In this document: one piece after another, positions 678-48,227 of the stretch | How the letters are laid out: the number at the start of each line of letters is the position of its first letter | How positions within the stretch are numbered: position 1 is the stretch's first letter | NCBI GenBank assembly: GCA_050184115.1 | Contig: JBFXAQ010000014.1 | Coordinates: 30,925 to 94,924, forward strand | Source of the DNA: Gammaproteobacteria bacterium | Lineage (GTDB): Bacteria; Pseudomonadota; Gammaproteobacteria; Ga0077536 | Direction: 5' to 3' | Length of the DNA stretch: 64,000 nt | Notes under the pieces: generated by a model | What the model was told of the DNA's origin: nothing | What the model saw: only the letters and a program-made list of their open reading frames with translations | Database searches by the model: none | Translations under genes and position numbers: made by a program

Positions 678-1249
678 GTGGGGCCGATCGAAGACCTCCC
701 GGCCGAGGGCATCGACACGCCGCACGGCCGTCTCTGCAAGCCCCTCGGCGACGGCTGGCAGAGCGGGGTGCTGCTGCTGGAATTCGCTGGCGGGCCGCTG
801 TGCGGCAACCTCGTCGGGCGCATTCCCGGTGACCTCAGCGAGCGCGCGCACCTTCCTCTACGTACCGCTCGTGCTGGTGTTCTTCGCCGGCTACACGCTG
901 TGGGTCGCGCGCCTCAATGCCATTGCCTTCGACGGCCTCGGCCGTGCCGGGCTGAAGACGCTGTTCCTGCTCATCGTGCGGCGCCTTCGGGCCGACACGC
1001 GTCGAAGAGGTCTTGCCGAGCGAGGGCAAGCTGCTCGAACTGGCTGTGCGGGCCCAGCGCGCCGGTGTCGCGTTCCGCCCGGCGAGTTATCCCCTCGCGG
1101 TCCTGGCCGGTTTCGCAGCGCTCGTCATCGAAACGCGGGTGAGCGCGGGGGGCATGTTCCTGCTCGTCGCTGGCAGTTGCGTGGCCTGGGGCGCGACCCT
1201 CGGCTGGCTCGGACGCCGCGGCTGGCTGCCGTTCACGGAAGAAGGCTGA
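678..1249 (+). pseudogene. Possible frameshifted small membrane-protein gene (protein-like translation jumps frame 0 -> +1 -> +2)
   Basis: Three successive overlapping ORFs (678.., 637.., 1013..1249) each give hydrophobic TM-like stretches (YVPLVLVFFAGYTLWVA, LAVLAGFAALVIE, MFLLVAGSCVAWGATLGWLG) only over adjacent sub-regions. No single long frame is present. Confidence 0.2.
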
Positions 1250-1373
1250 TGACGACGCCCGGGCGCGCTGGCCGCGGGTCCGCCAACGGGCTAAGGTCAC
1301 GAGCGGGGTGCGCCTGCGTGACTGCGCGGCGCGGGTCTGCGGCGAGCGCGCCGGATCGCGCGCACTCCAGTCA

Positions 1374-1772
1374 ATGGTCAACGTGCGAGGGGAGACAGAC
1401 GTGAACTGGTATATCGAAGTCCTGAAGAAGTACGCGGTGTTCAGTGGTCGGGCCAGGCGCAAGGAATACTGGTTCTTCGTCCTGTTCAACATCATCGTGA
1501 GCGTGGTGCTGTCGGTCATCGACGGCGTGACGGGAACGCTCGATACCGAAGGTGGCGTCGGTCTCCTCAGCGGCCTCTACACGCTCGCGGTCATCGTGCC
1601 CAGCATCGCTGTCGGCATCCGTCGCCTGCATGACATCGGCCGCTCCGGCTGGTGGTTGTTGATCGTCCTGGTGCCCTTGATTGGCGCCCTGGTCCTGCTC
1701 TTCTTCGCCGTGCAGGACAGCCAGCCCGGCAGCAACGAGTATGGGCCGAATCCCAAGGAGGTCGCGGACTGA
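1374..1772 (+). CDS. DUF805 family inner-membrane protein (YhaH-like)
   Basis: WYIEVLKKYAVFSGRARRKEYWFF...GIRRLHDIGRSGWW motifs are typical of DUF805. Alternative start is GTG at 1401, preceded by GAGGGGAG RBS. Confidence 0.75.
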   Translation: MVNVRGETDVNWYIEVLKKYAVFSGRARRKEYWFFVLFNIIVSVVLSVIDGVTGTLDTEGGVGLLSGLYTLAVIVPSIAVGIRRLHDIGRSGWWLLIVLVPLIGALVLLFFAVQDSQPGSNEYGPNPKEVAD

Positions 1773-1794
1773 CGGCCGTGCCGCTGCGGCGCGA

Positions 1795-2919
1795 CTAGGG
1801 ACGCGTCGCGCCCAGAGACCGTTCGGCCGGGGTGGCGAGATCGCGATCCCAGGCCGTGAGCCGGGGCGCGATGTGACGGAACCACAGTGGCGGCACGAGC
1901 ACCAGCGGCAAGGTGGCGAGATAACCGAGTGGCAACCTCGGCGCACTGTCGCTGGCGTGGAGTTCGGGGTAGTGCACACCAGCCCGGCTGTGATGGTCCG
2001 CGTGCCAGGGCAGGTTGAACAGCGCGGCATGGCTGAAGGCGCTGATCGAGTCCCAGGCGTGGCGGGGTTCGATCGGGGTACCCGCTACGCGGACCAGGCC
2101 GTAGTGCTCCATGTAATTGAGTGCTTCGAGCAGCAGCTTGTTCCAGGCCGAGGCGAGCAGGAACCAGCCGAGCGCACCGATGCCGCCAGCCCACAGGAAG
2201 CCGCCGGCCACCGCCAGGGCGCGCAGGAAGCCGCGCAGCACGCGGTTGTCGACGACGCGCGCGACGGGTTTGCGGCTGGCGAGGCGGGCACGCTCGATGC
2301 GCCAGGCCTGGGCAACCTGGCCGAGGCTCGAACGCAGGTAGAAGCGGTAGACGTTCTCACCACGCCGCGCGGTGGCCGGGTCGGCCGGCGTGCCGACCTC
2401 GCGGTGATGGCCCTGCACGTGCGCCACCTCCAGACTGCTGTTGAAGGCCAGCGCCAGCAGCCAGCGGCCGACCGCGAGGGCCAGCGGATCACGCGTGCGG
2501 TGGACCAGTTCGTGGGCCGTCAGGATGCCGGCCATGGCGATGGCGAGCGCGAACGACCAGGTGCCGCCGAGCCGATCGAGGGCATTGCTGGCATCGCGCG
2601 CCCCCAGGCAATCGTAGCCGCTCGCAACTTGGCAGGTGGCGCCGAAGCCGAGCAGGTCGGCATCGGCCAGCGACCAGGCGTAGACCAGGGTCAGCAGGGT
2701 GACCGTCGGCAGGAGGCTGTAGAGCGCGAGGTCGAGCAACGCACGATGGGCGTAACGCGGCGGCCGCGGCGCAACCGCGCTACTGAGGACGTCGCCGCCG
2801 ATCCAGACCACGACGCCTGCAACCAGCCCGCTCCATGCCCAGGAACCGCCCATGAGCAGGCCGAGCATGGTCGCCGCGACCAGCAGATGGGTGCCGAAGT
2901 AGCGCAGGTAGGCGCGCAT
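1795..2919 (-). CDS. alkB: Alkane 1-monooxygenase / AlkB-type membrane fatty-acid-desaturase-family hydroxylase
   Basis: All four His boxes are present: HELVHR, EVAHVQGHH, NYMEHYGL, LPWHADHH. Multiple TM segments. Start trimmed to MRAYLRY (ATG revcomp at 2917-2919) from the long ORF 1795..3624. Confidence 0.8.
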   Translation of the reverse strand: MRAYLRYFGTHLLVAATMLGLLMGGSWAWSGLVAGVVVWIGGDVLSSAVAPRPPRYAHRALLDLALYSLLPTVTLLTLVYAWSLADADLLGFGATCQVASGYDCLGARDASNALDRLGGTWSFALAIAMAGILTAHELVHRTRDPLALAVGRWLLALAFNSSLEVAHVQGHHREVGTPADPATARRGENVYRFYLRSSLGQVAQAWRIERARLASRKPVARVVDNRVLRGFLRALAVAGGFLWAGGIGALGWFLLASAWNKLLLEALNYMEHYGLVRVAGTPIEPRHAWDSISAFSHAALFNLPWHADHHSRAGVHYPELHASDSAPRLPLGYLATLPLVLVPPLWFRHIAPRLTAWDRDLATPAERSLGATRP

Positions 2920-3849: not shown

Positions 3850-4212
3850 TCAGCGCTTGCCCTTGCGCAGCATCCGTAGATCGCCTTCCAACGCCTCGTG
3901 CAGGTCGTGGTTGTCGAGCTCGTAGTAGACCTGCTTGCCGTCGTTGGTGGTGCTCAACCAGCCACGGTCCTTGAGTTGCTTGAGCTGCTGTGAGGTGGCG
4001 GCGAAGCTGAGCCCGAGGAGGCTGGCGATGTCGCCGACGCACAGGGGGCCGACGCGGCCGAGCGCGAGCAGGATCTTGATGCGCACCGGATTGGCGATGA
4101 GCTTGTAGAGCTCCGCCATGCGCGGCAGAACCTCGGCGTCCTGCTCCAGCTTGCGCGCGGCGCGCGCTACTGCGCGTTCGTCGCGCACGACGATGTTGGG
4201 CGTGGAGGGCAT
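3850..4212 (-). CDS. ArsR/SmtB-family HTH transcriptional regulator
   Basis: C-terminal 120 aa of ORF 3850..5793: ELYKLIANPVRIKILLAL...VGDIASLLGLSFAATSQQLKQLKDRGWL, a typical ArsR wHTH. Start at MPSTPN (CAT 4210-4212). Confidence 0.75.
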   Translation of the reverse strand: MPSTPNIVVRDERAVARAARKLEQDAEVLPRMAELYKLIANPVRIKILLALGRVGPLCVGDIASLLGLSFAATSQQLKQLKDRGWLSTTNDGKQVYYELDNHDLHEALEGDLRMLRKGKR

Positions 4213-4437
4213 GCGGCCACCAGTGTTCTGCAGGTGGCATATTCTCGAACTTTTCTTCGCCCCGCGCACGGTGTGCGCGGGGCAGTGCGATGTCGTGGCC
4301 GTCGCCCTGGATGTGGCCGTGCGCAATGAGCGTGGTGATCGCCGTCGACCCCGCCGACGTATCGACATACATGCGTTTGCCGCCTGCTCCACGCGGCGGC
4401 GATAATCGCTCCGCCCCGATACCGAGCCCGTGCCGAC

Positions 4438-22560: not shown

Positions 22561-22622
22561 TAGTTTGCGGCGATGTCCGCATCGCCGCAGCGTCGTTCTT
22601 CGTCCGCTACCAAGGGGCGCCC

Positions 22623-23258
22623 GTGGTCAGCGTGACCCGCCGCGCGCGCGCGGCGCCGCGCGACGATGCGGCGATGACCGATCGCCTGCTCGCGGCCCTC
22701 GAACGCCTGCTCGAGCACGAACCGAGCTATACGACCCTGGCGGTCGCCCGCCTGGCCGAGGAAGCCGGCATCGCACGGGCGACCTTCTATCTCCACTTCC
22801 GCGACAAGAGCGACCTCGTGCAGCGCCTGCTGGCGCGGGTCGAGGACGAGATGATCGCGGCCGGCGGCGAGTGGTTCCGTCACGCCGAGGACTTCGACTA
22901 CGCCGACCTGCGCGCCGCCATGCAGCGCTTCGCCGGCGTCTACCGCGCACACCATGCCGTCCTGCGTGTCGCCGCCGAGACCGCGGCCTACGATGCCGAC
23001 ATCGCCGCGCTCTACGCCCGCACGCTCGACCGCTTCCGTGCCGAGACGCGCGGCGCCGTGCAACGCATCGCCGCCGCCGGACGCGCCCACGCCGCGCTGC
23101 CGCCGCTGCTCGGCGACGTGCTCGCCTGGGCCGCCGATCATCTCTACGTCCACCACGCGGCAACCTTGCCCGAGGACCAGCTCGACGCCCTGCTCGATGC
23201 CATGACGTATCTCGTGTGGAGCGCCGTCTTTGCCGCGCCGCCCGGTGCGGCGTCCTGA
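22623..23258 (+). CDS. TetR/AcrR-family transcriptional regulator
   Basis: N-terminal HTH (YTTLAVARLAEEAGIARATFYLHFRDKSDL) plus C-terminal ligand domain. Confidence 0.85.
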   Translation: MVSVTRRARAAPRDDAAMTDRLLAALERLLEHEPSYTTLAVARLAEEAGIARATFYLHFRDKSDLVQRLLARVEDEMIAAGGEWFRHAEDFDYADLRAAMQRFAGVYRAHHAVLRVAAETAAYDADIAALYARTLDRFRAETRGAVQRIAAAGRAHAALPPLLGDVLAWAADHLYVHHAATLPEDQLDALLDAMTYLVWSAVFAAPPGAAS

Positions 23259-23314
23259 AGCGGTCAGGGCACATCCATATCAATCGACACCGTCAAACGA
23301 GGGGAGAACACACC

Positions 23315-24472
23315 ATGCAGGACATCGGCAAGCTGCTGCCGCTCGACGAGCAGGTCAACCACCAGATCATCGATACCTTTGCCACTGTCGCGCAGTCGGA
23401 CCTGTCGTGGACGGAGAAGTTGTGGACGCCGGTTTCGCGCAAGGACGGCAGCCTGCAGCTCGACATGGGGATGGGGCGCTATCCCAACCGCGGCGTTCTC
23501 GATGGCTTCGCCGGCCTCTCGCGCGGGCTCGAGCAGTGGACGGTACGGGCCAGCCGCGAACTCTCGCTCGACCCCTTGGCGACCGCGGTCGGCCCGCTCA
23601 GTTACGAAGTCCTCGAACCCTTGAAGCAGGTGCGCTGGAAGCTCGAGAAGAACGACATCGTCCCGCTCGAGTTCGACATCACCTTCCATGCAACCTTCCC
23701 GGCCTTCTTCGAGGATCGCCACATCCAGCGCGACGAGCACAGCTTTCGCGTCGTCTCCAACGTGGTGCGCTACCACCAGGCGGGCGAACCCAGCGGCTGG
23801 TACGCCATCGACGGCAAGCGCGAGACCATCAACACCGAGGACTGGTTCTGCTACCGCGACCATTCCTGGGGCGTGCGTCTCGACGTCGGTGCGCCGCCGT
23901 CGGACCTGCGCCCGGCACGCGACTTCGGCGAGCGCAAGTTCGAGGATTCCAAGTTCCTGCTCAATTGGTCACCGCTGCTGTTGCAGCGACCCGACGGCAG
24001 TCGCTACGAGTATCACTTCTACCTGCAGATCCGTGGTGACGAGGTGTTCTACTTTTCCGGCTATCGCAACCACGCCGACGGCCGCCAGGAGCGCATCGCA
24101 CGCGCGCGCCCGGAACTGCGTTACGTCGACGAGACTCGCCGCCTGATCGGCGGTCGCATTCATTTCGACATGCTCTCGGGCGAGACGGCGACGGTCGAAC
24201 TCGAGGTACGTGGCGAGTCCGGCTTCTACCTGGGGCCCGCCCTCTATCTCGGTTTCGACGGCAAGAAGCACGGCAACTGGCGCGGCGAACTCGCGCTCGA
24301 CGGCGAGCAGATCCCGGACATGACGAATCCCGAGGTGCGCAAGCGCATGGGCTCGGCCGTGCGCGACACCATCGTCGCCGTGCGCGAGGGCGAGGCCACC
24401 GGCCATGGCCTGTTCGAGCCCATCGTGCTGGGCGAGTGGCCGGACCTCGAACTCTACGGCACCCAGCCCTGA
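23315..24472 (+). CDS. Conserved hypothetical protein (385 aa), unknown function
   Basis: Strong RBS GAGGGGAGAA before ATG 23315. Soluble, Trp/Tyr-rich. No family recognised with confidence. Confidence 0.5.
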   Translation: MQDIGKLLPLDEQVNHQIIDTFATVAQSDLSWTEKLWTPVSRKDGSLQLDMGMGRYPNRGVLDGFAGLSRGLEQWTVRASRELSLDPLATAVGPLSYEVLEPLKQVRWKLEKNDIVPLEFDITFHATFPAFFEDRHIQRDEHSFRVVSNVVRYHQAGEPSGWYAIDGKRETINTEDWFCYRDHSWGVRLDVGAPPSDLRPARDFGERKFEDSKFLLNWSPLLLQRPDGSRYEYHFYLQIRGDEVFYFSGYRNHADGRQERIARARPELRYVDETRRLIGGRIHFDMLSGETATVELEVRGESGFYLGPALYLGFDGKKHGNWRGELALDGEQIPDMTNPEVRKRMGSAVRDTIVAVREGEATGHGLFEPIVLGEWPDLELYGTQP

Positions 24473-24481
24473 GGCCGCGCC

Positions 24482-25462
24482 ATGGCACGCGATCTGGAGC
24501 AGATGCTGGCAGGCCTGCGCGACCATCTTGCCGACGGCGCCGGATTGACCGGCATCGTGCCGCTGTCGACCGGCCATTCCAACGAGACCTACCTGCTCGA
24601 GGGCATCGATCGCATCCTGCGCATGCCGCCCTCGGAAGAAGGCCTCTTGCCGCCATACGACATGGCCCTGCAGCACGCGGTGCTGGCCGCCATGGGCGGC
24701 ACGGCAGACGGGCCGCCGGTGCCGGCGGTCTACGAACTGTGCACCGATGACAGTGTCATCGGGGACGCCTTTTTCGTCATGGAATGCCTGCAGGGCGAGG
24801 CCTTCGAGTACGTCACGCCCGATTGGTTGAGCGCGGCACCGGCCGCGTTGCCGGACGCCATGTGTCGGCAGTGGATCGGCGCCGTCACGGCCGTTCATCG
24901 ACTGCCGGTTGCGTGCATGCCAGCGGCCGCGCGCAGCCCCGTCGACGAAGCGCGTCATTGGCTGGCGGTCGCCGAGCAAGCCGAGGCGCCGGCCGCGCTG
25001 CTGGCAGTGCTACGCGAACTGGTCGCCAGCCCGCCGCGGTCGTCCGGTCCGGTCACCCCGGTGCATGGCGACCCCAAGCACGGCAATTGCCTGTGGCGGC
25101 AGGACGGGCAACTGCTGGCCCTGCTCGACTGGGAGATGGCCGGGGTCGGCGAACCGATGACGGATCTCGGCTACATCGCTCATTTCTATGACCAGGGCGA
25201 GGCCAAGCTCGCCACGGCGGGCTACGAGCTACCGGGTTGGTGGTCGAAGGCGCAGGTGGTCGCGGCCTGGGAAGCGGCGACCGGCCGCACGGCCGTCGAC
25301 TTGATGCGCTACGAGGCGCTCGCCGTGGCCAAGATCGCCGCCATCATTGCGCTCGGCTACCACCTGTTCGCCAGTGGACGGACCCGCGATCCGCGCTTCG
25401 AGGCCTGGGCTGCGGTGATACCCGGCTACGTCGACATGGCCACGCGTTTCGCGACGGCATGA
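24482..25462 (+). CDS. Phosphotransferase-family protein (APH/choline-kinase-like kinase)
   Basis: HGDPKHGNCLW (Brenner motif) and LLDWEMAGVGEPMTDLG (DxE/D motif) are typical of the APH fold. Confidence 0.8.
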   Translation: MARDLEQMLAGLRDHLADGAGLTGIVPLSTGHSNETYLLEGIDRILRMPPSEEGLLPPYDMALQHAVLAAMGGTADGPPVPAVYELCTDDSVIGDAFFVMECLQGEAFEYVTPDWLSAAPAALPDAMCRQWIGAVTAVHRLPVACMPAAARSPVDEARHWLAVAEQAEAPAALLAVLRELVASPPRSSGPVTPVHGDPKHGNCLWRQDGQLLALLDWEMAGVGEPMTDLGYIAHFYDQGEAKLATAGYELPGWWSKAQVVAAWEAATGRTAVDLMRYEALAVAKIAAIIALGYHLFASGRTRDPRFEAWAAVIPGYVDMATRFATA

Positions 25463-25477
25463 AGGCGCTGCGTTATA

Positions 25478-25567
25478 GGGCGGAGCGGAATTAAGTGCCG
25501 GGCCTTGCGGCCCGGCGAGGGGAGGTCCCAAGTACAGGTTTCGAGGGGAGGTCGATCTGCATTGGTG
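25478..25567 (-). ncRNA. Sibling sRNA 1 of 5 (CcsR/cuckoo-like, two CCUCCCCUC motifs)
   Basis: Minus strand has -35 TTGCGA, 16-nt spacer, -10 TAGACT. Variable-stem hairpin with loop UCGACCUCCCCUCGAAA, then GGGACCUCCCCUC. Terminator GCCGGGCC-GCAA-GGCCCGGC followed by ACUUAAUU. Confidence 0.55.
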
Positions 25568-25745
25568 AATACAAGTCTACACTAAAAATGCGGCATCGCA
25601 ACAATTTTATTGCACAACAGCATTTCCAATCTCGCTTGGCCCGTCACGGGAATCCGCGCCCGCGTAGTGAGCCTTCCAGTCGCGGTCGAGCCAAATAGCC
25701 GCGGAGCACGGCATGTGGCGCGCTAACGGAAGACAATCGGCAGGG

Positions 25746-25835
25746 GAAATTAAGTGCCGGGCCTTGCGGCCCGGCGAGGGGAGGTCCCAAGTACAGGTTT
25801 CGAGGGGAGGTCGATCTGCATTGGTGAATACAAGT
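25746..25835 (-). ncRNA. Sibling sRNA 2 of 5
   Basis: Near-identical to copy 1 over ~190 nt (offset 268 nt). Same promoter, hairpin and terminator. Confidence 0.55.
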
Positions 25836-25997
25836 CTACACTAAAAATGCGGCAGTGCAACATTTATATTGCATAACAGCATTTCCAATCTCGCCTGGCC
25901 CGTCACGGCAACCCGTGCTGTTTACGAGGCAATCTCGGCCGAACAGGATTGCCGCGAGGTACCGCGCACGGTGCGGTGAAGGTCGAGAATCGGTGGG

Positions 25998-26078
25998 CGA
26001 TTTAAGAGCCGGGCCTTGCGGCCCGGCGAGGGGAGGTCCCGAGTACAGGTTTCGAGGGGAGGTCGACCTGTATCGGAG
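25998..26078 (-). ncRNA. Sibling sRNA 3 of 5
   Basis: -35 TTGCAC, 16-nt spacer, -10 TATCAT. Hairpin stem CCGAUACAGG/CCUGUACUCGG, covarying relative to copy 1. Conserved loop and terminator. Confidence 0.5.
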
Positions 26079-26183
26079 GATGCCATGATACACGGTTTAT
26101 GTCGCAGTGCAACATTTCCCTGGGTGCTCGTGGCGCGCAGGCTGATGTGTCTGCAAAGCAGGCCCGTTCAGATGCCAAGGTCG

Positions 26184-26267
26184 GAAAATAAGAGCCGGGC
26201 CTTGCGGCCCGGCGAGGGGAGGTGCCAAAGACGGTTGTCGAGGGGAGGTCGAGCGTCCGTCTTGGTG
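26184..26267 (-). ncRNA. Sibling sRNA 4 of 5
   Basis: -35 TTGCGG, 16-nt spacer, -10 TATACT. Hairpin stem CCAAGACGG/CCGUCUUUGG (covarying). Terminator followed by CUCUUAUUUUCC. Confidence 0.5.
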
Positions 26268-26444
26268 TAAGCGAGTATAGGCGCCCTGTACCGCGCCGCA
26301 ACAACCAATTTGGAATAAGTCTATTCCCTTTCGTCAGCAAGGGGTTCTGCCAAGGACCTCAAGCTATGACTCAGATAGGGTCCCGAGCCGCGGCAACGAC
26401 ACCACAGCGGATCGGTGCAAGGCCGTTCGGACGAGGCGAGCGGG

Positions 26445-26528
26445 AAAATTAAGTGCCGGGCCTTTGCGGCCCGGCGAGGGGAGGTCCCAGTAACAGAATC
26501 GAGGGGAGGTCGAAGGACTGTTATGGTG
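26445..26528 (-). ncRNA. Sibling sRNA 5 of 5
   Basis: -35 TTGCGT, 16-nt spacer, -10 TATACT. Hairpin stem CCAUAACAG/CUGUUACUGG (covarying). Terminator loop has one extra U. Confidence 0.5.
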
Positions 26529-26617
26529 CGACGCAGTATAGCGCTCGATTGCCGCGACGCAACATGCAATCCGAACAACTTTGTTTCCCGGCGGGCAAAC
26601 CGCGGCGTGGCATCCGC

Positions 26618-28405
26618 TCAGGCCGGTTCGCAAGGACGTTCGGTGCGCGCGAAACCGGCCCGTCGCAGCCACAGGGCGTAGTGCTCGCGATCCTCCTCGT
26701 GGCGAAACGGCATGCGCGCGAGGTGGTCGTCGAGATCGAACTCGGGGTAATGCTCCAGATAGCGATCGACGTAGCGTGATGCCTCAGCGGTCTCTCCGAG
26801 CGCGGCATGGATGGCCGCAAACCAGCGGCAGGCCGACACCTGCGGCGTGTGCAGTTCCTTGATCACCGCCGCGGCAGCGACATAGCGCCGGGCGACGAAG
26901 TTGGCCGCGGCGTAGAGACTGCGCGGCCAGTCGCCGAGGAAGGGGTTGATGTCGAAAGCCCGCTCGAGCAATTCCATGGCACGTTCCGGTTCTCCTGCCA
27001 GGGTCAGCGCCTGGGCCAGGAAGGCGTAGCAGTCGGCGTCATTCATGTTGAGCTCGAGCGCGGTCTCGAAACATTCGATGGCCTTGTCGAGATCCTTGCG
27101 GAAGAAATGCACCATGCCGAGACACAGGCGATAGGTGTGGGCCGAAGGATCCAGGTGCGCGGCGCGCTGGGCGTAGTCGAGCGCCTTGTCGAGCGAACCC
27201 TGCGGGTCGCAGGTCCAGTATTCGTTGTAGGCGACTGCGTAGGTCCAGGCGATGCCAGCGTAGGCACGCGGATACTCCGGGTCGACCTGGATCGCCTGCA
27301 GGTAGAGCCCGCGGGCGGCGAGGTTGTCCTCGCGATTGAACTTCAACCACAGCTCGCGCCCGCGCAGGACGAGGTCGTAGGCGGCGACGCTGTGCGCGGC
27401 CTGCTCGCTGCGCGCACGTTTACGCTCGCTGACTTCGAGGCGCCCGACCAGGGTCGAGACGATGCGGCGGGTCAATTCGTCCTGGACGGCGAAGACGTCC
27501 TCGAGGCGACGGTCGAAGCGCTCCGCCCACAGGTGATGGCCGCTGGCCGCCTCGATGAGCTGCGCATTGACCCGCACCCGGTCACCGGCCTTGCGCACGC
27601 TGCCCTCGAGGATGTAGCGCACGTTGAGGTCGCGCCCGATGTCCTGGGCGCGGGGCGCGCGTCCCTTGTAGCTGAAACTCGTGTTGCGCGAGGTGACGAC
27701 GAGATCCTTGAAGCGTGACAGCTCGGTGATGACATCCTCGGTGATGCCGTCGGCGAAGTATTCGTCTTCCGACTGGCCGGTCATGTTGGTGAAGGGCAGC
27801 ACGACGATCGACGGTCGTGCCGGTGGTGCCGCGGCCGGCGCCACTGGCGAGAGCTCCGTCGCGGCACCGTCGACGTCTTCTCCTTCGTCGAGCGCGTAGA
27901 CGCGCACCGGACGCGCGATGTTCTTGACCTCCTGCTCGCCGAGGAAGCGCCAGCGCGTGTCGCCGCGACCGACGACGAAGTCGTGGGCCGGCCCCGACAG
28001 GGTGATCGAGCCCGGCTCGGCGAGCGCTTCCAGGCGCGCGGCAATGTTGACCCCCTCGCCGTAGATGCTGCCGTCGCTCTGCTGCAGGATGTCGCCCAGG
28101 TTGATGCCGATGCGGAAACGCATGCGACGCGGCTCCGGTCGTTCGGCGTTGCGCCGGGCGAGTTCGGCCTGGATGGCGAGGCTGGCATCGAGCGCTTCCA
28201 GCACGCTGTCGAACACCGCCAGGACGCTGTCGCCGGCCGTGTCGACCACCCGCCCGCCATGTTCGGCGGTGAACTCGCGGAACACGTCGCGCGAGGCTTC
28301 AAGCATCGTCACCGTGTCCGCTTCGTCCTCGCCCATCAGCCGCGAATAGCCGGCAACGTCGGCGCTGACGATGGCGGCGAGGCGGCGTCGAGGCTCGGTG
28401 AACAT
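26618..28405 (-). CDS. Class III adenylate/guanylate cyclase fused to TPR-repeat domain
   Basis: N-terminal CHD cyclase domain (AAIVSADVAGYSRLMGEDE...GINLGDIL...GEGVNIAARLE), then a TolB-like linker and C-terminal TPR repeats. Confidence 0.8.
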   Translation of the reverse strand: MFTEPRRRLAAIVSADVAGYSRLMGEDEADTVTMLEASRDVFREFTAEHGGRVVDTAGDSVLAVFDSVLEALDASLAIQAELARRNAERPEPRRMRFRIGINLGDILQQSDGSIYGEGVNIAARLEALAEPGSITLSGPAHDFVVGRGDTRWRFLGEQEVKNIARPVRVYALDEGEDVDGAATELSPVAPAAAPPARPSIVVLPFTNMTGQSEDEYFADGITEDVITELSRFKDLVVTSRNTSFSYKGRAPRAQDIGRDLNVRYILEGSVRKAGDRVRVNAQLIEAASGHHLWAERFDRRLEDVFAVQDELTRRIVSTLVGRLEVSERKRARSEQAAHSVAAYDLVLRGRELWLKFNREDNLAARGLYLQAIQVDPEYPRAYAGIAWTYAVAYNEYWTCDPQGSLDKALDYAQRAAHLDPSAHTYRLCLGMVHFFRKDLDKAIECFETALELNMNDADCYAFLAQALTLAGEPERAMELLERAFDINPFLGDWPRSLYAAANFVARRYVAAAAVIKELHTPQVSACRWFAAIHAALGETAEASRYVDRYLEHYPEFDLDDHLARMPFRHEEDREHYALWLRRAGFARTERPCEPA

Positions 28406-28427: not shown

Positions 28428-30692
28428 TCAATCGAGCAACGGCTTGCCGCTGACGAATCGATCGAGCACGTTCTTGGTGATGCGCGAGACGTTGTTCCTG
28501 TAGTTGTCGTGGGCGAGCGAGCCCGGCCAGGCGATCGAACTGGTCGCGAACACGCCGCCGCCGTTGGCGGTCTCGTAGAAGACGAGATCCGCGCGTACGA
28601 GGTCGTTCTCCTGGCCGCCGGTGCCGGGGTAGTTGATCAGCATCTCCTCGCACACCACGAGGTAGATGTCGGTGTGATCCTCCGAGGATGCCAGCAGGTA
28701 GGCATTGGGCGGTGTGCCCAGCGCACGGTCGGCGCGGTCGAGCTCGAGCCCGGCGGCGCCGCCGCCGATGAGGCCGAAGTCGCCGATGCGCTCGTCGGCG
28801 CCGACGCCGTTCATGATCCAGCGCACCTCCTTCCTGAAGCTGTCCGGCTTGCGCACGTAGTACGACGAGATGTCGAAACCCTGGGCGGTGAAGCCGGTGC
28901 CGACAATCTGCTGCGGCGGGCGGCCGTTACGTCGCCACAGTCCGCCGTACTCGCCGGTGAAACCGTGGTAGTACTCGCCCGTGCGCGCCTCCCAGGCGCG
29001 GATGCCGTCTTCGTTGCGCCGCACCTCGATGATGCCGGGCACCTCGCCGTGGTAAGCGATGCGCCAGTACCAGCCGTTGGCGCCCAGGTACATGAAGCGG
29101 CCGCCGCGCTGCTGCCAGGCATGCAGCGCATCCCACATCTGCTTCGAGTGGTATTCGGGATGCGAAGACGACAACACCACGCGGTAGGGCTCGATGGACT
29201 TGAGGCCTTCGTAGTGCAGCTCTTCGTCGGTGATGACGTCGTACTCGTAGCCCATGTTCTCGAGCCAGTTGATGATGTGGGTGTCGGCGTTGAACTGCCA
29301 CAGGGTCGAGCCCTCGCCACCCAGCCACGACTTGTACTTCGGCCGCATGTTGAGGATGGGGCGCAGGCGCGAGGAATGGCACACGCCCGAGCCGTCCGAA
29401 TGCACGTCGTAGCAGCTCGAACCATACTCGCGGTGCACGTTGCGGTAGAGATCCTGCCGCTCGTGCTCGACCAGGCGACCGCCGAGCAGCTGGGCAATCG
29501 GCGCGTCCGTGCCCATGTGCTCGTTGGCGTAGGCCATGTAGCTGGCCGTCGGCAGCACGAAACAGATCTTCGCCGTCGCCTGGCCGCGCGGCGGCAGCAC
29601 CGCGAACGGCACGTAGTCCTCGTCTTCGAGAGCCGCGCCGCAACGCAGGCGCGCGCAGTAGAGACCACTCTTGAGATTCTTCGGCACGGTCAGCGAGACA
29701 TCGACCTGCCAGGCCGCGTCGTAGACGTCGTCGTCGTGGAAGTGGATGGCGCCGTACTCGCGTGGCGCGTGGCGCCAGTTCATCTCCTCGCCGCTCCAGT
29801 TCCAGCCGGTCATGCCGCGCGCCGGCATGTGTACGACGTGCCCGTGCAGCCGGTTGGGTGAAAGATCGGAGACGCGCAAGCCGGTGATGTCGGTACTGAA
29901 GTCCCAGGCGCCGAAGACGTCGTTGGCCAGCGTGCGATCGAGGTTCGGTGCACGCAGGGTTTCCATCTCGGCGCGGTCGAGGGCGCGGGTCGCGATGCGC
30001 GGGCTGTCGATCTTGCCGTTGTAGTGCTGGTCGCACACCGTGCGGCCGGCGTCGAAGCGCTGGAAGCGGGCGGCGAGGGTGACGGGGCCATCGTGGCCGC
30101 CGAGGCGGGCTGTCTTCGCCGTGGCGCGGACGAGCGCCGCGTCGCGCGTGCCGACATGGGTGTGCAGGGGTTCCTGGATCAGCACCACTTTCTTTGTCCG
30201 GGCATCGAAGCTCGCGGCGATGAAATACCACTCGTGGGCGAGCAGGGCACGCCCGGTGGTGAAGGTTTCGCTGCGGCCGCGGGCGCCACCGAGGGTGAGC
30301 GAGATGCCGCCGTTGTCGGCGGCGATGCCGAGCACTGCGCCACCGCCCTGGCGACCTGCCCAATGGCTGATCAGCGCCTGCGCGCCGCGTTCTGGAGTAG
30401 TTGGCCAGATGAAGGCTTGCAGCGTGAAGCTGTCGAGTGCCGGCATGTTGTCGGCGCGCGGGATCTCGACGAACGAGCCGGCGTGAATCACCTGCTTGCG
30501 GCCCTTGTAGGTGCCGTTGGCCGGCGTGCGCACGACGCGTTCCTGGTACCCCGGGCCGTCCGGATTCATGTCGCCGCAGATCAGGCGCACGAAGTCGGCG
30601 CGAAATTCCCTCGCATCGCAGTTGACCATGAAGTTGATGGTTTCACCGGGCGCCACGCTGACGCGGTCGGCATAGGCAGTGATCTTCATCAT
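28428..30692 (-). CDS. dmfA2: N,N-dimethylformamidase large (beta) subunit
   Basis: ~755 aa. Start MMKITAYADRVSVAPGE with strong RBS GGGGGGAGGAAACAG. Sequence resembles the DMFase large subunit of Paracoccus/Methylobacterium/Alcaligenes type. Confidence 0.65.
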   Translation of the reverse strand: MMKITAYADRVSVAPGETINFMVNCDAREFRADFVRLICGDMNPDGPGYQERVVRTPANGTYKGRKQVIHAGSFVEIPRADNMPALDSFTLQAFIWPTTPERGAQALISHWAGRQGGGAVLGIAADNGGISLTLGGARGRSETFTTGRALLAHEWYFIAASFDARTKKVVLIQEPLHTHVGTRDAALVRATAKTARLGGHDGPVTLAARFQRFDAGRTVCDQHYNGKIDSPRIATRALDRAEMETLRAPNLDRTLANDVFGAWDFSTDITGLRVSDLSPNRLHGHVVHMPARGMTGWNWSGEEMNWRHAPREYGAIHFHDDDVYDAAWQVDVSLTVPKNLKSGLYCARLRCGAALEDEDYVPFAVLPPRGQATAKICFVLPTASYMAYANEHMGTDAPIAQLLGGRLVEHERQDLYRNVHREYGSSCYDVHSDGSGVCHSSRLRPILNMRPKYKSWLGGEGSTLWQFNADTHIINWLENMGYEYDVITDEELHYEGLKSIEPYRVVLSSSHPEYHSKQMWDALHAWQQRGGRFMYLGANGWYWRIAYHGEVPGIIEVRRNEDGIRAWEARTGEYYHGFTGEYGGLWRRNGRPPQQIVGTGFTAQGFDISSYYVRKPDSFRKEVRWIMNGVGADERIGDFGLIGGGAAGLELDRADRALGTPPNAYLLASSEDHTDIYLVVCEEMLINYPGTGGQENDLVRADLVFYETANGGGVFATSSIAWPGSLAHDNYRNNVSRITKNVLDRFVSGKPLLD

Positions 30693-30726
30693 TGTTCTGT
30701 TTCCTCCCCCCAGATCGTACGTCGGC

Positions 30727-31053
30727 TCAGGCGCGCAAGGTTTCACCCGTCAGCGCCTTCCAGCGCTGGCGGAAGACGTACCACTCGGCCTCGGTCTGGC
30801 TGGTGAAACGCCGGTTGAGCAGCTTGACCGGTTCGCCGGGTTTGCCGGTGGTCCGGGCGAGCTGCCATTCACGGTTGGGCTTGATCACCACCAGGCAGTA
30901 CTTGTCTGCCATGGGCGCACCGCGCATGCGCGTGAGCAGGCGCTGCAGGTCCGGACTGTGGTGTCCGATCGGGTTGTGCTTGAATTCCTCGATGAGGCGG
31001 CGGTCGTCCGCCTGCGGCCGGTAGTTCTCGTGCGCTTCTTTGAGTTCTGCCAT
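30727..31053 (-). CDS. dmfA1: N,N-dimethylformamidase small (alpha) subunit
   Basis: 108-aa MAELKEAHENYRPQADDRRLIEEFKHNP... ORF 34 nt upstream of the large subunit, with GGGGAGGA RBS. Trimmed from ORF 30727..31239. Confidence 0.6.
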   Translation of the reverse strand: MAELKEAHENYRPQADDRRLIEEFKHNPIGHHSPDLQRLLTRMRGAPMADKYCLVVIKPNREWQLARTTGKPGEPVKLLNRRFTSQTEAEWYVFRQRWKALTGETLRA

Positions 31054-42535: not shown

Positions 42536-44191
42536 TCAGCGCGCGGCGCTGAAGCCCCGCGCCCGTTCGCGCAGCACGAACTTCTGGATCTTGCCGCTCG
42601 GCGTGCGCGGGAAGTCGTCGACCAGTTCGAGCCGCTCCGGCAGGTATTGTCGCGTCAGCTTCGCCTGCAGCAGGTAGTCGACGAGACCGTCGAAGTCGAG
42701 CTGGCCACCGGCCTTGAGGCTGACGAAAGCGCAGGCGCGCTCGCCCAGGCGCGCATCCGGCATCGCCACCACCGCGGCGTCCTGCACGGCCGGGTGGCGA
42801 TAGAGCAATTCCTCCACTTCGACCACCGGGATGTTCTCGCCGCCCCGGATGATGATGTCCTTGGAGCGGCCCGTGATGCGGATGTAGCCGTCGTCGTCCA
42901 TGCGCGCGTTGTCGCCGGTCTCGAACCAGCCGTCCCCGTCGACCTCGTAGGCCTCGGGACGCTTGAGGTAGCCGACGAAGAGGGTCGCGGACTGCGCCTG
43001 CAAGCGGCCCTCGGTCCCGTTCGGCACCACCGCGCCGTGCTCGTCGACGATGCGCACGGCATGACCGGGCAGGGCGCGGCCGTCGGTCTCGAAGACCTTC
43101 TCCGCCGGGTCGCCGGGATAGGTCGCGGTCGAGATGCCCATCTCGGTCATGCCCCAGGCGCTCATCATGTACATGTTGGGCAGCGCGCGTGCGGCATCGT
43201 GCACCAGCACGCGCGGGATCGGCGCGCCGGCGCAGAGGAACAGGCGCAGGCTCGCCAATGCCTCGCCGTGGCTGGCCGCGGCCTGCACCAGGTCGCTGAC
43301 GAACGGCGTTGCACCCAGGGTCAGCGTGCAGCCCTCCTCACCGATGATGCGTGCCGCGGCGAGCGCGTCCCACTGGTCGAGCAGTACGAGCTTGGTGTGG
43401 TTGCGGATGGAGAACACCACGCCGTACATGAAGCCGGTCTGGTGCGCGACCGGCGAGCCCATGAAAACGGCATCGCGCTCGGTGAACGAGAACAGCTCGG
43501 TGGCGAGGAGCGCCTTGCAGTAGAGCGTGTTGGCCGTATGCATCACGCCCTTGGGTTGGCCGGTGGTGCCCGAGGTGTACATGATCTCGGTGACGTCGTC
43601 CGGTGCCGGTCGGCGTTCGGCGAGCAGTACCTCCACATCGGGCGCTTGTTCGTGCGGAATGTCGAGTAGGACGCGTTCGAAGGAGGTCGCCGGATCATTA
43701 CCGCCGATCACGAGCACATGGCGGAGTAGCGGCAGCTTCGACCGCAGGCCTGCCATCATCCTTGGGTAGTCGAAGCCGCGGAACTCGCGCGGCACGATCA
43801 TCACCTTCGACTCGGCGTGGCCGAGCATGAATTCGAGTTCGCGTTCACGGAAGATCGGCATCAGCGGGTTGATCACCGCGCCGATGCGCACGCAGGCGGC
43901 GTGGATGGCGGCGTATTGCCACCAACTCGGCAGCTGCACGGCGACGACGTCGCCCTTGGCGACACCGAGCGCGGCGAGACCGGCGGCGAGACGCAGCGAA
44001 TGATCGCGTAGCTGGCTGTAGGTGAGCTCGTTGCGCCGCCCGCTCATCGAGTTGTGGTCGACGATGGCGATACGCGTCGGGTCGGCCACCGCAACCTCGT
44101 CGAGATCGTCGATCAGCAGGCGGTCCGGCCACAGCCCGGCGGCGCGCATGCGCGCCGCACGTGCGGCCGGCAGGATCGGATCGGTCGCCAT
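42536..44191 (-). CDS. AMP-dependent acyl-CoA synthetase/ligase
   Basis: AMP-binding motifs YTSGTTGQPKGV and TGD...GRSKDII, C-terminal ...PRTPSGKIQKF. Confidence 0.85.
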   Translation of the reverse strand: MATDPILPAARAARMRAAGLWPDRLLIDDLDEVAVADPTRIAIVDHNSMSGRRNELTYSQLRDHSLRLAAGLAALGVAKGDVVAVQLPSWWQYAAIHAACVRIGAVINPLMPIFRERELEFMLGHAESKVMIVPREFRGFDYPRMMAGLRSKLPLLRHVLVIGGNDPATSFERVLLDIPHEQAPDVEVLLAERRPAPDDVTEIMYTSGTTGQPKGVMHTANTLYCKALLATELFSFTERDAVFMGSPVAHQTGFMYGVVFSIRNHTKLVLLDQWDALAAARIIGEEGCTLTLGATPFVSDLVQAAASHGEALASLRLFLCAGAPIPRVLVHDAARALPNMYMMSAWGMTEMGISTATYPGDPAEKVFETDGRALPGHAVRIVDEHGAVVPNGTEGRLQAQSATLFVGYLKRPEAYEVDGDGWFETGDNARMDDDGYIRITGRSKDIIIRGGENIPVVEVEELLYRHPAVQDAAVVAMPDARLGERACAFVSLKAGGQLDFDGLVDYLLQAKLTRQYLPERLELVDDFPRTPSGKIQKFVLRERARGFSAAR

Positions 44192-46064: not shown

Positions 46065-47411
46065 TCAGGGTGTGAAGAACTCGCAGCCGGTCTTGGCCTT
46101 CACTTCGTCCAGCGTCACGCCGTCGTGCAGTTCCTTCAGCACCAGGCCCTCGCCGTCCGGCAGCACTTCGAACACGCACAGATCAGTGATGATCATGTCG
46201 ACCACGTTCTTGCCCGTGATCGGCAGCGAGCAGTGCTTGAGGATCTTCGGCGTGCCGTCCTTCGCGCAGTGGTCCATCAGCACGATCACGCGCTTGACGC
46301 CGGAGACGAGATCCATCGCGCCGCCCGGGCCCTTGACCATCTTGCCCGGCACCATGAAGTTGGCGAGGTCGCCGTTCTCGGCCACCTCGAGGCCGCCGAG
46401 GATCGAAAGGTCGACGTGACCGCCGCGGATCATGGCGAAGGAGTCGGCACTGGAGAAGAAGCTCGAACCGGCAATGGCGGTGATGGTCTGCTTGCCGGCG
46501 TTGATGAGATCGGCGTCGACATCCGCTTCCTCGGGGAAGGGGCCGATGCCGAGCAGGCCGTTCTCCGACTGCAGGGTGACGTTGACGCCCGCGGGAATGA
46601 AGTTGGCAACCAGCGTCGGGATGCCGATGCCGAGGTTGACGTAGAAACCGTCCTTCAATTCCTGCGCGGCGCGTTTCGCCATCATGTCGCGGGTCGGAGA
46701 ACCGCCCTTCGCCGGCGTGCCGGCGACGGTGCGGAACTCGATGCGCTTCTCGTAATCGCGCCCCTGGATGATGCGGTCGACGTAGATGCCCGGGGTGTGG
46801 ACCTGGTCGGGGTCGAGTTCGCCCACCTCGACCAGTTCCTCGACCTCGGCGATACAGACCTTGCCGCAGGTCGCGATCGTCGGATTGAAGTTGCGCGCGG
46901 CCTTGCGGTACACCAGGTTACCGGCCTTGTCGCCCTTCCACGCCTTGACGATCGCGACGTCGGCGCGGATGCCTTGCTCGAGCACGTACTCGACGCCGTC
47001 GAACACCTTGACCTCCTTGCCCTCGCCGAGCGGCGTGCCGAAGGCCGTGCGGGTGTAGAAGCCCGGGATGCCGGCGCCACCGGCGCGCAGGCGCTCGGCC
47101 AGCGTGCCCTGCGGGGTGAGGTGCAGCTTGAGTTCGCCGGCCAGCACCTGGCGCTCGAACTCCTTGTTCTCGCCGACGTAGGAGGCGATGACTTCCTTCA
47201 CCTGGCGATTGTTGAGCAGGAGGCCCATGCCGAAGCCGTCGACGCCCGCGTTGTTGCCGACGATGGTCAGGCCCTTGATGCCGGACGCGGCGAGCGCGGC
47301 GATGAGGTTCTCGGGGATGCCGCACAGGCCGAAGCCGCCGGCGGCGATGGTGATGTCGTCCCGGAGGACGTCTTGGAGCGCCGACGTGGCGTCCGGGAAG
47401 ACCTTGTTCAT
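46065..47411 (-). CDS. 3-oxoacid CoA-transferase with fused A and B subunits (SCOT-like)
   Basis: A-subunit ([14 protein letters not shown]...) and B-subunit (…[11 protein letters not shown]… catalytic Glu region) in one continuous 448-aa reading frame. Trimmed from ORF 46065..48134. Confidence 0.75.
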
Positions 47412-47590
47412 CTGCTGGGCCCCTTGGAACCTGGCGCGCCCACGGCGCGGCGTGTCGAACGATGGCGAAGGGCCTGCGCCACCGAACGGGTCGCTCTCGC
47501 GGACGGGTGGAAGCGCGGGCCGCGCGGCGGACGGGCCGCGGCGGCCGCGATTATAGCGAAGCTGCGTGCGCCTTCGGCGCCGGGCCGGGT

Positions 47591-48034
47591 TCAGCCGTTC
47601 AGGCTGGACACGAGCGTCGGCGAGAGCTGGCCGTCGACGGGCAGTCCTCGGTCCGCCTGGTAGGCGCGAATGGCCTGGCGCGTCTTCGGCCCGACCACGC
47701 CGTCGACCGGGCCCGGGTCGTAGCCGCGCGCGGCGAGCCGGCCCTGGACGTCGGCAACGAGGTGGTTGAGTTCGCGTGCCTGGCTGCTCTGCTTCCACGC
47801 CGGGTCGCCCATGTCGACCTGCGACTTGTCGGTGAAGATGCCGGTCAGGGCACCACCAGCCGCGCCGAGCGCAGCGGCTTCCAGCACCGAGAGCCCGGTC
47901 ACCGCGCCGATGATGGCGCCGGCGCCGGCGCCGATGCCGGCGCCGCTGAGGCCGCGATCCTGGGCGGTGGTACCGCAGCCGGCGGTCGTGGCGAGCGCCA
48001 GGGCCAGCGCGGCGGTCTTCGTCATCGTGATCAT
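47591..48034 (-). CDS. Lipoprotein with glycine-zipper and C-terminal peptidoglycan-binding (PG_binding_1) domain
   Basis: Lipobox [24 protein letters not shown] glycine zipper. PGB motif ...[58 protein letters not shown]. Confidence 0.7.
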
Positions 48035-48227
48035 GATTCCCTCCTGCGTAGCGGTTTTCTTCTGGCGACGCGAGGTGTGCGTCGTGCCCGCAACCATGGC
48101 CAATCAGCCGCCACCAGCGCGTGACGGCGCGCACGCCGCGGCTGTCGCGCGGGCGGGTTCCCGGGCGAAACGTGAAGAGGTCGCGATTTCGTCGCCGTCG
48201 CCGGCGAGGCGAGTTCCTTACAGGCGC

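Follow-up and report, generated by a model that had tools for sequence, protein, structure and literature searches.

The 64-kb stretch of gammaproteobacterial DNA analysed here (the window; 64,000 nt of contig JBFXAQ010000014.1) carries an array of five tandem units of about 80 nt on its minus strand, between positions 25489 and 26562. We read the array as five paralogous, independently transcribed genes for a regulatory RNA of about 80 nt that would repress mRNAs with G-rich ribosome-binding sites (RBSs), and put the probability of this reading at roughly 0.65. It is very probable that the units are genuine small RNA (sRNA) genes. Translational repression by occlusion of the RBS, argued by analogy with sRNAs studied elsewhere, stands somewhat above an even chance. 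Gene structure, RNA fold, strand, conservation and synteny were worked out computationally; transcription, a regulator, an anti-Shine-Dalgarno (anti-SD) mechanism and targets are inferred. The family is previously undescribed and numbers 48 copies, with a covariance model (CM), a promoter and a putative regulator site; the concept of sibling sRNAs with an anti-SD motif is already known.

Each unit, read on the minus strand, contains GACCUCCCCUCG twice (motifs 1 and 2). Copies are numbered in transcription order, so that copy 1 is copy 5 of a preliminary description of this DNA. The genes and promoters are as follows, L004 being the locus of the closest relative.

26445-26528, minus strand: sRNA copy 1, predicted 84 nt; motif 1 at 26500-26511, motif 2 at 26475-26486, terminator at 26455-26475; CM match 95.3 bits, fold z-score -4.18, 99% identical to copy 1 of L004.
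26535-26590, minus strand: promoter of copy 1; -35 TTGCGT at 26557-26562, -10 TATACT at 26535-26540, degenerate inverted repeat at about 26572-26590 (3 mismatches).
26185-26267, minus strand: sRNA copy 2, predicted 83 nt; motif 1 at 26239-26250, motif 2 (CACCUCCCCUCG) at 26213-26224, terminator at 26194-26213; CM match 95.9 bits, fold z-score -4.33.
26274-26329, minus strand: promoter of copy 2; -35 TTGCGG at 26296-26301, -10 TATACT at 26274-26279, inverted repeat GGGAA-N9-TTCCA at 26311-26329; the whole block is identical in L004.
26000-26078, minus strand: sRNA copy 3, predicted 79 nt; motif 1 at 26053-26064, motif 2 at 26027-26038, terminator at 26008-26027 with a weak U-tract (CUCUUAAAU); CM match 90.2 bits, fold z-score -5.01.
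26085-26112, minus strand: promoter of copy 3; -35 TTGCAC at 26107-26112, -10 TATCAT at 26085-26090, no recognisable upstream inverted repeat.
25747-25826, minus strand: sRNA copy 4, predicted 80 nt; motif 1 at 25801-25812, motif 2 at 25775-25786, terminator at 25756-25775; CM match 96.9 bits, fold z-score -4.28.
25833-25888, minus strand: promoter of copy 4; -35 TTGCAC at 25855-25860, -10 TAGACT at 25833-25838, inverted repeat TGGAA-N9-TGCAA at 25870-25888.
25489-25567, minus strand: sRNA copy 5, predicted 79 nt; motif 1 at 25542-25553, motif 2 at 25516-25527, terminator at 25497-25516; CM match 95.4 bits, a recent duplicate of copy 4.
25574-25629, minus strand: promoter of copy 5; -35 TTGCGA at 25596-25601, -10 TAGACT at 25574-25579, inverted repeat at 25611-25629.

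A repeat search recovered the five tandem cores that the preliminary description had reported, as direct copies of 70 nt at plus-strand coordinates 25486, 25745, 25997, 26183 and 26444 (core-to-core spacings 259, 252, 186 and 261). Its remark that the first two copies in plus-strand order are nearly identical was also borne out. Positions 25489-25659 and 25748-25918 share 95% identity over 171 nt, which indicates a recent duplication involving these two proximal copies (4 and 5), and comparison with L004 identifies the fifth copy of the window as a lineage-specific duplicate of the fourth. The 12-mer GACCTCCCCTCG, allowing one mismatch, has 10 matches in the window. Every one lies on the minus strand of the array, two in each unit; 0.68 would be expected by chance, and none of 100 shuffles reached 10.

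The array had been called a low-GC, ORF-free island. The low GC is real (55-62%, against 65-72% in the flanks). Mechanical open reading frames (ORFs) of 67-112 aa do exist within it, but a Pfam search of these ORFs gave no match, and third-position GC is 0.54-0.66 in all frames, without the periodicity of the coding flanks (0.83-0.93), so that "ORF-free" is better understood as no coding signal. On the minus strand, copies 4 (25747-25826) and 5 (25489-25567) have an AUG 5 nt from the predicted 5′ end, opening a 23-codon frame that stops at a UAA in the terminator tail. The small-peptide reading was rejected, as this AUG and frame are not kept in the other copies.

The predicted RNA starts with a 9-bp lower stem that has a one-nt bulge on its 3′ side, followed by a variable internal loop and an upper helix of 4 bp (UCGA/UCGA) closing the 7-nt loop CCUCCCC. 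This is the body hairpin of the preliminary description, with the conserved loop proposed there (UCGACCUCCCCUCGA) now refined into the short helix and the 7-nt loop. The second GACCUCCCCUCG lies unpaired, 3′ of hairpin 1, in a single-stranded stretch that reads GGGACCUCCCCUCG. At the 3′ end of each unit there is one 8-bp GC terminator hairpin, GCCGGGCC-GCAA(A)-GGCCCGGC, with a U-rich tail. Over 41 distinct RNAs, the mean unpaired probability of CCUCCCC is 1.00 in motif 1 (the loop) and 0.83 in motif 2 (the linear segment).

The fold is kept by compensation. In an alignment of 34 distinct sequences guided by the CM, standard pairs make up 96.2% of the 713 cells in the three helices, and double-sided, compensatory changes occur at 8 of the 21 pairs (32 cells), in line with the covarying stems that had been noticed among the window's copies. 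One clade has switched its upper helix from UCGA/UCGA to AUGA/UCGU (U-A/C-G to A-U/U-G). The terminator hairpin is 100% paired in the family alignment with 2 covarying pairs, and shows two G-C to C-G swaps. No column shuffle out of 500 reached any of the observed pairing measures, and sliding the partner columns by 1-3 lowered pairing to 22-46%. The same helices came from a MAFFT alignment and RNAalifold, run before any CM existed.

Three features together assign the transcribed strand to the minus strand: G-U pairs, terminators and promoters. About 25 cells of the alignment are G-U pairs that would become A-C mismatches if read on the opposite strand. The terminators, GC hairpins with GCAA(A) loops in all five units as first described, read correctly on the minus strand only, and a terminator scanner calls three of the five window copies. 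Folded singly, the minus-strand sequences reach z-scores of -4.2 to -5.0, and the plus-strand sequences -1.4 to -1.8.

This strand asymmetry bears on the possibility that the array is non-transcribed repetitive DNA, whether similar to repetitive extragenic palindromes (REP) or miniature inverted-repeat transposable elements (MITE), a satellite, an attC- or CRISPR-like array, or a cluster of protein sites. Tandem repetition, palindromic segments and a weak CRISPR-DR29 match (E = 6.4) are what such an element could show. Asymmetric folding with G-U pairs and promoter elements at fixed spacing speak against it, as do a single locus per genome and a syntenic position across genomes, and no cas, integrase or transposase gene is present among the genes scanned around the array. 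The preliminary description had held that a genome-wide scattered REP/MITE family would speak against sRNA genes; the units are not dispersed. We regard repetitive DNA as a very remote explanation. Riboswitch or leader and attC-like readings were likewise rejected, and the sRNA interpretation of the array is strongly supported by comparative sequence evidence.

Each gene appears to have its own promoter. As previously noted for this DNA, all five units carry TTGCNN, a 16-nt spacer and TATACT, TATCAT or TAGACT at a fixed distance when anchored on the terminators. The first base of the stem lies about 7 nt past the -10, and the predicted RNAs are 79-84 nt long. TTGC-N18-TAnnnT is kept in 36 distinct promoters of family members across species, with TGTTGC(A) at the -35 and the T, A and final T of the -10 near-invariant at fixed spacing; the -10 is TATACT in 16 of them, TATGAT in 8 and TATCAT in 3. 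A strict-consensus promoter scan of the array called none because the -35 is TTGCNN instead of TTGACA. Readings of the conserved upstream blocks as sigma-54, sigma-E or sigma-32 promoters were rejected on inspection of the sequences, the spacing being wrong. The sigma-70-type promoter of each copy would produce an RNA of about 80 nt, ended by its own GC hairpin.

Farther upstream, 28 nt from the -35 and centred near -53 from the predicted transcription start site, lies the inverted repeat TGGAA-N9-TTCCA. With at most two mismatches, 26 of the 42 unique promoters have it at a constant offset; among 2000 control windows, 17 do (0.85%). Within the array it is good at copies 2, 4 and 5, degenerate at copy 1 and absent at copy 3. 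When TTGGAA-N9-TTCCAA was sought elsewhere in the window, nothing above chance was found outside the array. The repeat is probably an operator, a putative binding site through which one dimeric transcription factor would co-regulate the sibling genes. The spacer also holds a near-invariant TGC.GCA block right after the -35 TTGCA, often as TTGC-N6-GCAA (for example at 26296-26285 of the window). It may be an additional operator, or part of an extended promoter.

These upstream elements have to be weighed against an origin by processing. The array always follows N,N-dimethylformamidase (DMFase)-like or cyclase genes directly and in the same orientation, and the units could be cut from read-through transcripts of that operon as RNAs derived from a 3′ untranslated region (UTR), the promoters being fortuitous or minor. 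The CcsR1-4 RNAs do arise by such processing (PMC8034643). However, a conserved -35, a 16-nt spacer and a -10 stand at a fixed distance from the stem in 17 genomes, most with the inverted repeat upstream, the spacers between units are unconserved, and the terminator hairpin that ends each unit would block read-through. Processing is thus an improbable account, and we retain independent transcription of each copy.

The preliminary description had proposed a CM search of related genomes. We scanned 185,579 species-representative genomes (GTDB) with the pattern GACCTCCCCTCG-N10-30-CCTCCCCTCG. The scan gave 33 loci, of which 16 are true relatives and 17 are unrelated chance or repeat matches. The relatives have 1-4 tandem units at one locus per genome, a single locus also in a 5.7-Mb complete chromosome. 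A CM built from 34 units makes 37 family matches, at 50.9-105.6 bits, in the window and 16 species-level metagenome-assembled genomes (MAGs); everything else scores 24.4 bits or less, and the CM reveals no degenerate extra copies. A metagenome scan used a looser pattern in which only the 5′ stem and nine bases at the start of motif 1 were fixed, UCG, motif 2 and the terminator being left free. It added 5 further contigs or loci with 11 units, all of which have the remainder of motif 1, motif 2 and the terminator intact, and these bring the family to its 48 copies.

Comparison with L004 shows which parts of the array are maintained. The flanking proteins of the two loci are 87-97% identical. 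The RNA bodies are 99, 83, 91 and 91% identical, the promoters 48-75% and the spacers between units 38-51%, a footprint in which conservation is limited to RNA and promoter and which shows selection on these rather than on the repeat as a block.

As far as it has been sampled, the family is confined to one uncultured gammaproteobacterial lineage. All the relatives come from MAGs labelled Gammaproteobacteria or Pseudomonadota, bar one mislabelled Klebsiella. The TrkH protein of the window is 91% identical to that of MAG HK-STAS-PROT-138, encoded on the same contig as L004, and only about 55% identical to Thiohalomonadaceae and Nitrosococcus proteins, which places the host in an uncultured, deep gammaproteobacterial lineage and resolves it no further than the class. 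The cyclase protein of the window itself is recorded on a single 2.3-kb Logan contig only. This lineage of the host is known from metagenomes only, and no RNA regulator is described for it in Rfam 15 or in the literature searched. The exceptional locus, L006 (CAMCBY010000286.1), was deposited as a 'Klebsiella pneumoniae' MAG and has DMFase genes and two sRNA copies like the relatives of the sister clade; its label or binning is almost certainly wrong. An unrelated gammaproteobacterial MAG contains, at about 4100-4240 (plus strand) of locus L011, a 27-nt tandem repeat (GACCTCCCCTCGCCCCATCCTTAAAGT) with the identical 12-mer. It was rejected as a family member, its CM score being only 24 bits.

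The two exposed motifs suggest how the RNAs may act. They are complementary to GAGGGGAGG, an extended G-rich Shine-Dalgarno sequence, and have ACCUCC in common with the 3′ end of 16S rRNA. By this mechanism the RNAs would pair with G-rich RBSs and repress translation, and several copies would provide dosage and slightly different flanking specificity. Suitable sites are present in the window. At least 14 candidate starts of long ORFs with high third-position GC have GGGGAG, GGGAGG or GAGGGG 3-12 nt upstream; both DMFase genes of the window, with GGGGAGG RBSs, belong to this set. Unusually G-rich RBSs (GAGGGGAG or GGGGAGG) are found at many genes, for example at the starts at 23315, 1401 and 55069 on the plus strand and at 44191, 16887 and 13249 on the minus strand. 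One such site precedes position 23315, the probable start of the 635-aa mechanical ORF at 22565-24472. We favour RBS occlusion because of the experimental precedent of two other sRNA systems, sX13 and CcsR1-4, considered below.

Several points weigh against this reading. Both scans demanded motif 1, in full for the genomes and as its first nine bases for the metagenomes, and the genome scan demanded motif 2 as well, so most of the invariance of the motifs across genomes is built into the patterns. Evidence free of this effect is given by the additional units of each array and, in the metagenome units, by motif 2 and the final bases of motif 1. The CM was used to fit the structure alignment, whose sequences are related, so the pairing counts are supportive and carry no formal probability. 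The U-tracts, strong in one clade of the family, are interrupted in the window's clade (ACUUAAUUU), and the tail of copy 3 is poor. The complement of the 12-nt motif, with at most one mismatch, is absent elsewhere in the window, and an RNAduplex scan of the window with 21-nt motif segments gave no specific target, GC-rich flanks and the antisense of the array dominating. A role of the DMFase genes as conserved cis-linked targets is not supported, their RBS being GGGGAGG in the window and variable in relatives. Finally, 12 invariant nt exceed what an anti-SD seed needs and could point to a protein or another specific partner.

This last point leads to a different role for real RNAs. They could be decoys or sponges whose two invariant 12-nt motifs titrate a protein or ribonucleoprotein, such as a protein that binds C-rich RNA or a factor recognising the 3′ end of 16S rRNA, with which the motifs share ACCUCC. 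A motif longer than the typical anti-SD seed and invariant twice per RNA in 48 of 48 copies would fit titration, as would a gene dosage of up to five copies, typical of titrating RNAs, and the finding of no conserved mRNA target nearby. The genes scanned around the array include no candidate binding protein linked to the locus, and the RNAs are without the repeated GGA loops of the Csr/Rsm type. In Rsm RNAs, GGA motifs bind CsrA/RsmA; a sponge of that type was rejected here, as each RNA has a single GGA (UGGGACC) whose first two Gs are paired in the lower stem. For the C-rich loop sRNAs studied so far, the mode of action is base pairing (PMC3771888, PMC8034643). A decoy role is therefore unlikely, and repression by pairing at G-rich RBSs remains the reading we prefer.

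The genes around the array supply a possible physiological setting. The convergent APH-like and cyclase flanks of the preliminary description were found where it had placed them, and the neighbouring features of the window are as follows.

24482-25462, plus strand: APH-family phosphotransferase gene (Pfam), convergent with the array.
26618-28405, minus strand: adenylate/guanylate-cyclase (Guanylate_cyc), FlgO-like and TPR gene (Pfam, tblastn synteny), directly upstream of the array.
28428-31053, minus strand: DMFase-like operon; beta subunit (LamG and DMFA2_C) at 28428-30692, small alpha subunit at about 30727-31053.

The alpha subunit went unrecognised by our local Pfam copy, and its orthologues are annotated DMF_alpha (PF26354). 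Every relative whose flank is long enough has a two-gene DMFase-like operon upstream of the array and in the same orientation. The cyclase-TPR gene is an insertion peculiar to the window's clade (L004, L005, L007, L010, L026, L030, L031 and L038-L040), where it separates the array from the DMFase genes; in the sister clade, which is without this gene, the array abuts the DMFase genes. Conservation of the array downstream of the cyclase gene, a point raised earlier, thus holds in relatives in the broader form of a position behind cyclase or DMFase genes. The downstream flank varies by lineage, being APH (kept in L004 and L030 only), PhyH, IspA, or an extracytoplasmic function (ECF) sigma factor with a ChrR-like anti-sigma factor.

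This last arrangement was scanned for and seen in L009 only (888-2182, plus strand), where the ECF sigma and ChrR-like (Cupin_7) anti-sigma genes are convergent with the array. An ECF sigma/ChrR-type pair controls the singlet-oxygen response in Rhodobacter. Elsewhere in the window, a 689-aa mechanical ORF (46065-48134, minus strand) matches 3-oxoacid CoA-transferase subunit A over residues 242-459 and subunit B over residues 481-686. It has an N-terminal extension of about 240 residues, and is either a fusion or has an over-called start.

The DMFase linkage has survived rearrangements on both sides of the array, which is modest evidence for a functional connection and makes the linkage a testable physiological context. 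At more distant DMFase loci (L034-L036, 63-72% identity), a search for divergent sRNAs with filters off found none. It is tempting to speculate that the array is a lineage-wide anti-SD governor, in which one transcription factor acting through TGGAA-N9-TTCCA would switch on up to five copies and throttle all mRNAs with GGGGAGG-type RBSs, those of the adjacent DMFase (amide/one-carbon, C1) genes included. We consider this extension doubtful. If true, it would be a convergent gammaproteobacterial counterpart of the C1-modulating CcsR of Rhodobacter.

Arrays of sibling sRNAs are familiar from other Gammaproteobacteria. Qrr1-5, PrrF1/2, OmrA/B and RsmX1-5 are near-identical genes, often in tandem, each with its own promoter and Rho-independent terminator and under a shared regulator. 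They have an invariant seed and variable flanks, as in the array described here; their sequences, seeds, regulators and structures differ from it. No family in Rfam 15 matched the array, either in the window and 5 relatives at gathering score or in positions 25300-26700 at E up to 10, where only weak terminator-like matches (CC0196, SorX) and noise appeared. A literature search for the motif strings returned eukaryotic or unrelated papers only, and no bacterial paper.

The Rfam match to cuckoo/CcsR that the preliminary description had suggested is therefore absent, and the array RNAs are analogues of that family, not members of it. Cuckoo/CcsR/NfeR RNAs (Rfam RF02344, ar14) are short and occur in tandem, in clusters of as many as 9; a screen of 2,689 genomes found cuckoo in alphaproteobacteria only (Reinkensmeier & Giegerich 2015, PMC4615179). 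RNase E releases CcsR1-4 from a DUF1127 mRNA, expressed from an RpoHI/HII promoter, by cleavage in its 3′ UTR; CcsR1-4 have CCUCCUCCC loops and act on flhR, and CcsR modulates C1 metabolism in Rhodobacter (PMC8034643). The functional resemblance is close. Both are tandem short RNAs with at least two invariant C-rich anti-SD motifs each and with stems that vary by compensatory change, both are proposed to pair with RBSs, and the cuckoo HP2 type likewise has two modules in an RNA of about 80 nt.

The resemblance could in principle reflect homology, the array being a divergent branch of cuckoo/CcsR acquired by horizontal transfer. The shared design of tandem units of about 80 nt, two C-rich anti-SD modules and variable stems (PMC4615179) would agree with this, as would the closeness of both to C1/amide metabolism, through the effect of CcsR on C1 and the adjacent DMFase genes here. 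The defining features tested differ, however. All 48 copies carry CCUCCCCUC, and the cuckoo loop motif is CCUCCUCCC. Cuckoo RNAs have 2-4 adjacent hairpins with the motif in each loop; here only hairpin 1 presents it, and motif 2 is single-stranded before a terminator hairpin with a GCAA-like loop. Each copy has its own promoter and terminator and an upstream inverted repeat, in contrast to the RNase E processing of CcsR1-4. The neighbours are DMFase, cyclase-TPR and APH genes instead of the DUF1127 gene of the cuckoo CIN1 context, the host is gammaproteobacterial, and the Rfam model finds no match up to E 10. Because motif, architecture, Rfam model, taxon and gene context all differ, we do not count the array as a cuckoo member, and common descent is highly improbable.

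Among Gammaproteobacteria, the closest mechanistic analogue is sX13 of Xanthomonas, whose C-rich loops repress mRNAs with G-rich RBS motifs (PMC3771888). As with the GGGGAG(G) sites of the window, its G-rich RBSs mark a distinct subset of genes. Unlike the array RNAs, which are multi-copy and have one loop motif and one linear motif, sX13 is single-copy with three stem-loops and 4C/5C loop motifs, and it has no sequence or CM similarity to them. In design, the closest system is cuckoo/CcsR. The array would be a second, apparently independent case of tandem siblings with an invariant anti-SD motif, outside the Alphaproteobacteria, and such convergence supports the view of this architecture as a recurrent solution for the control of mRNAs whose RBSs are strong and G-rich.

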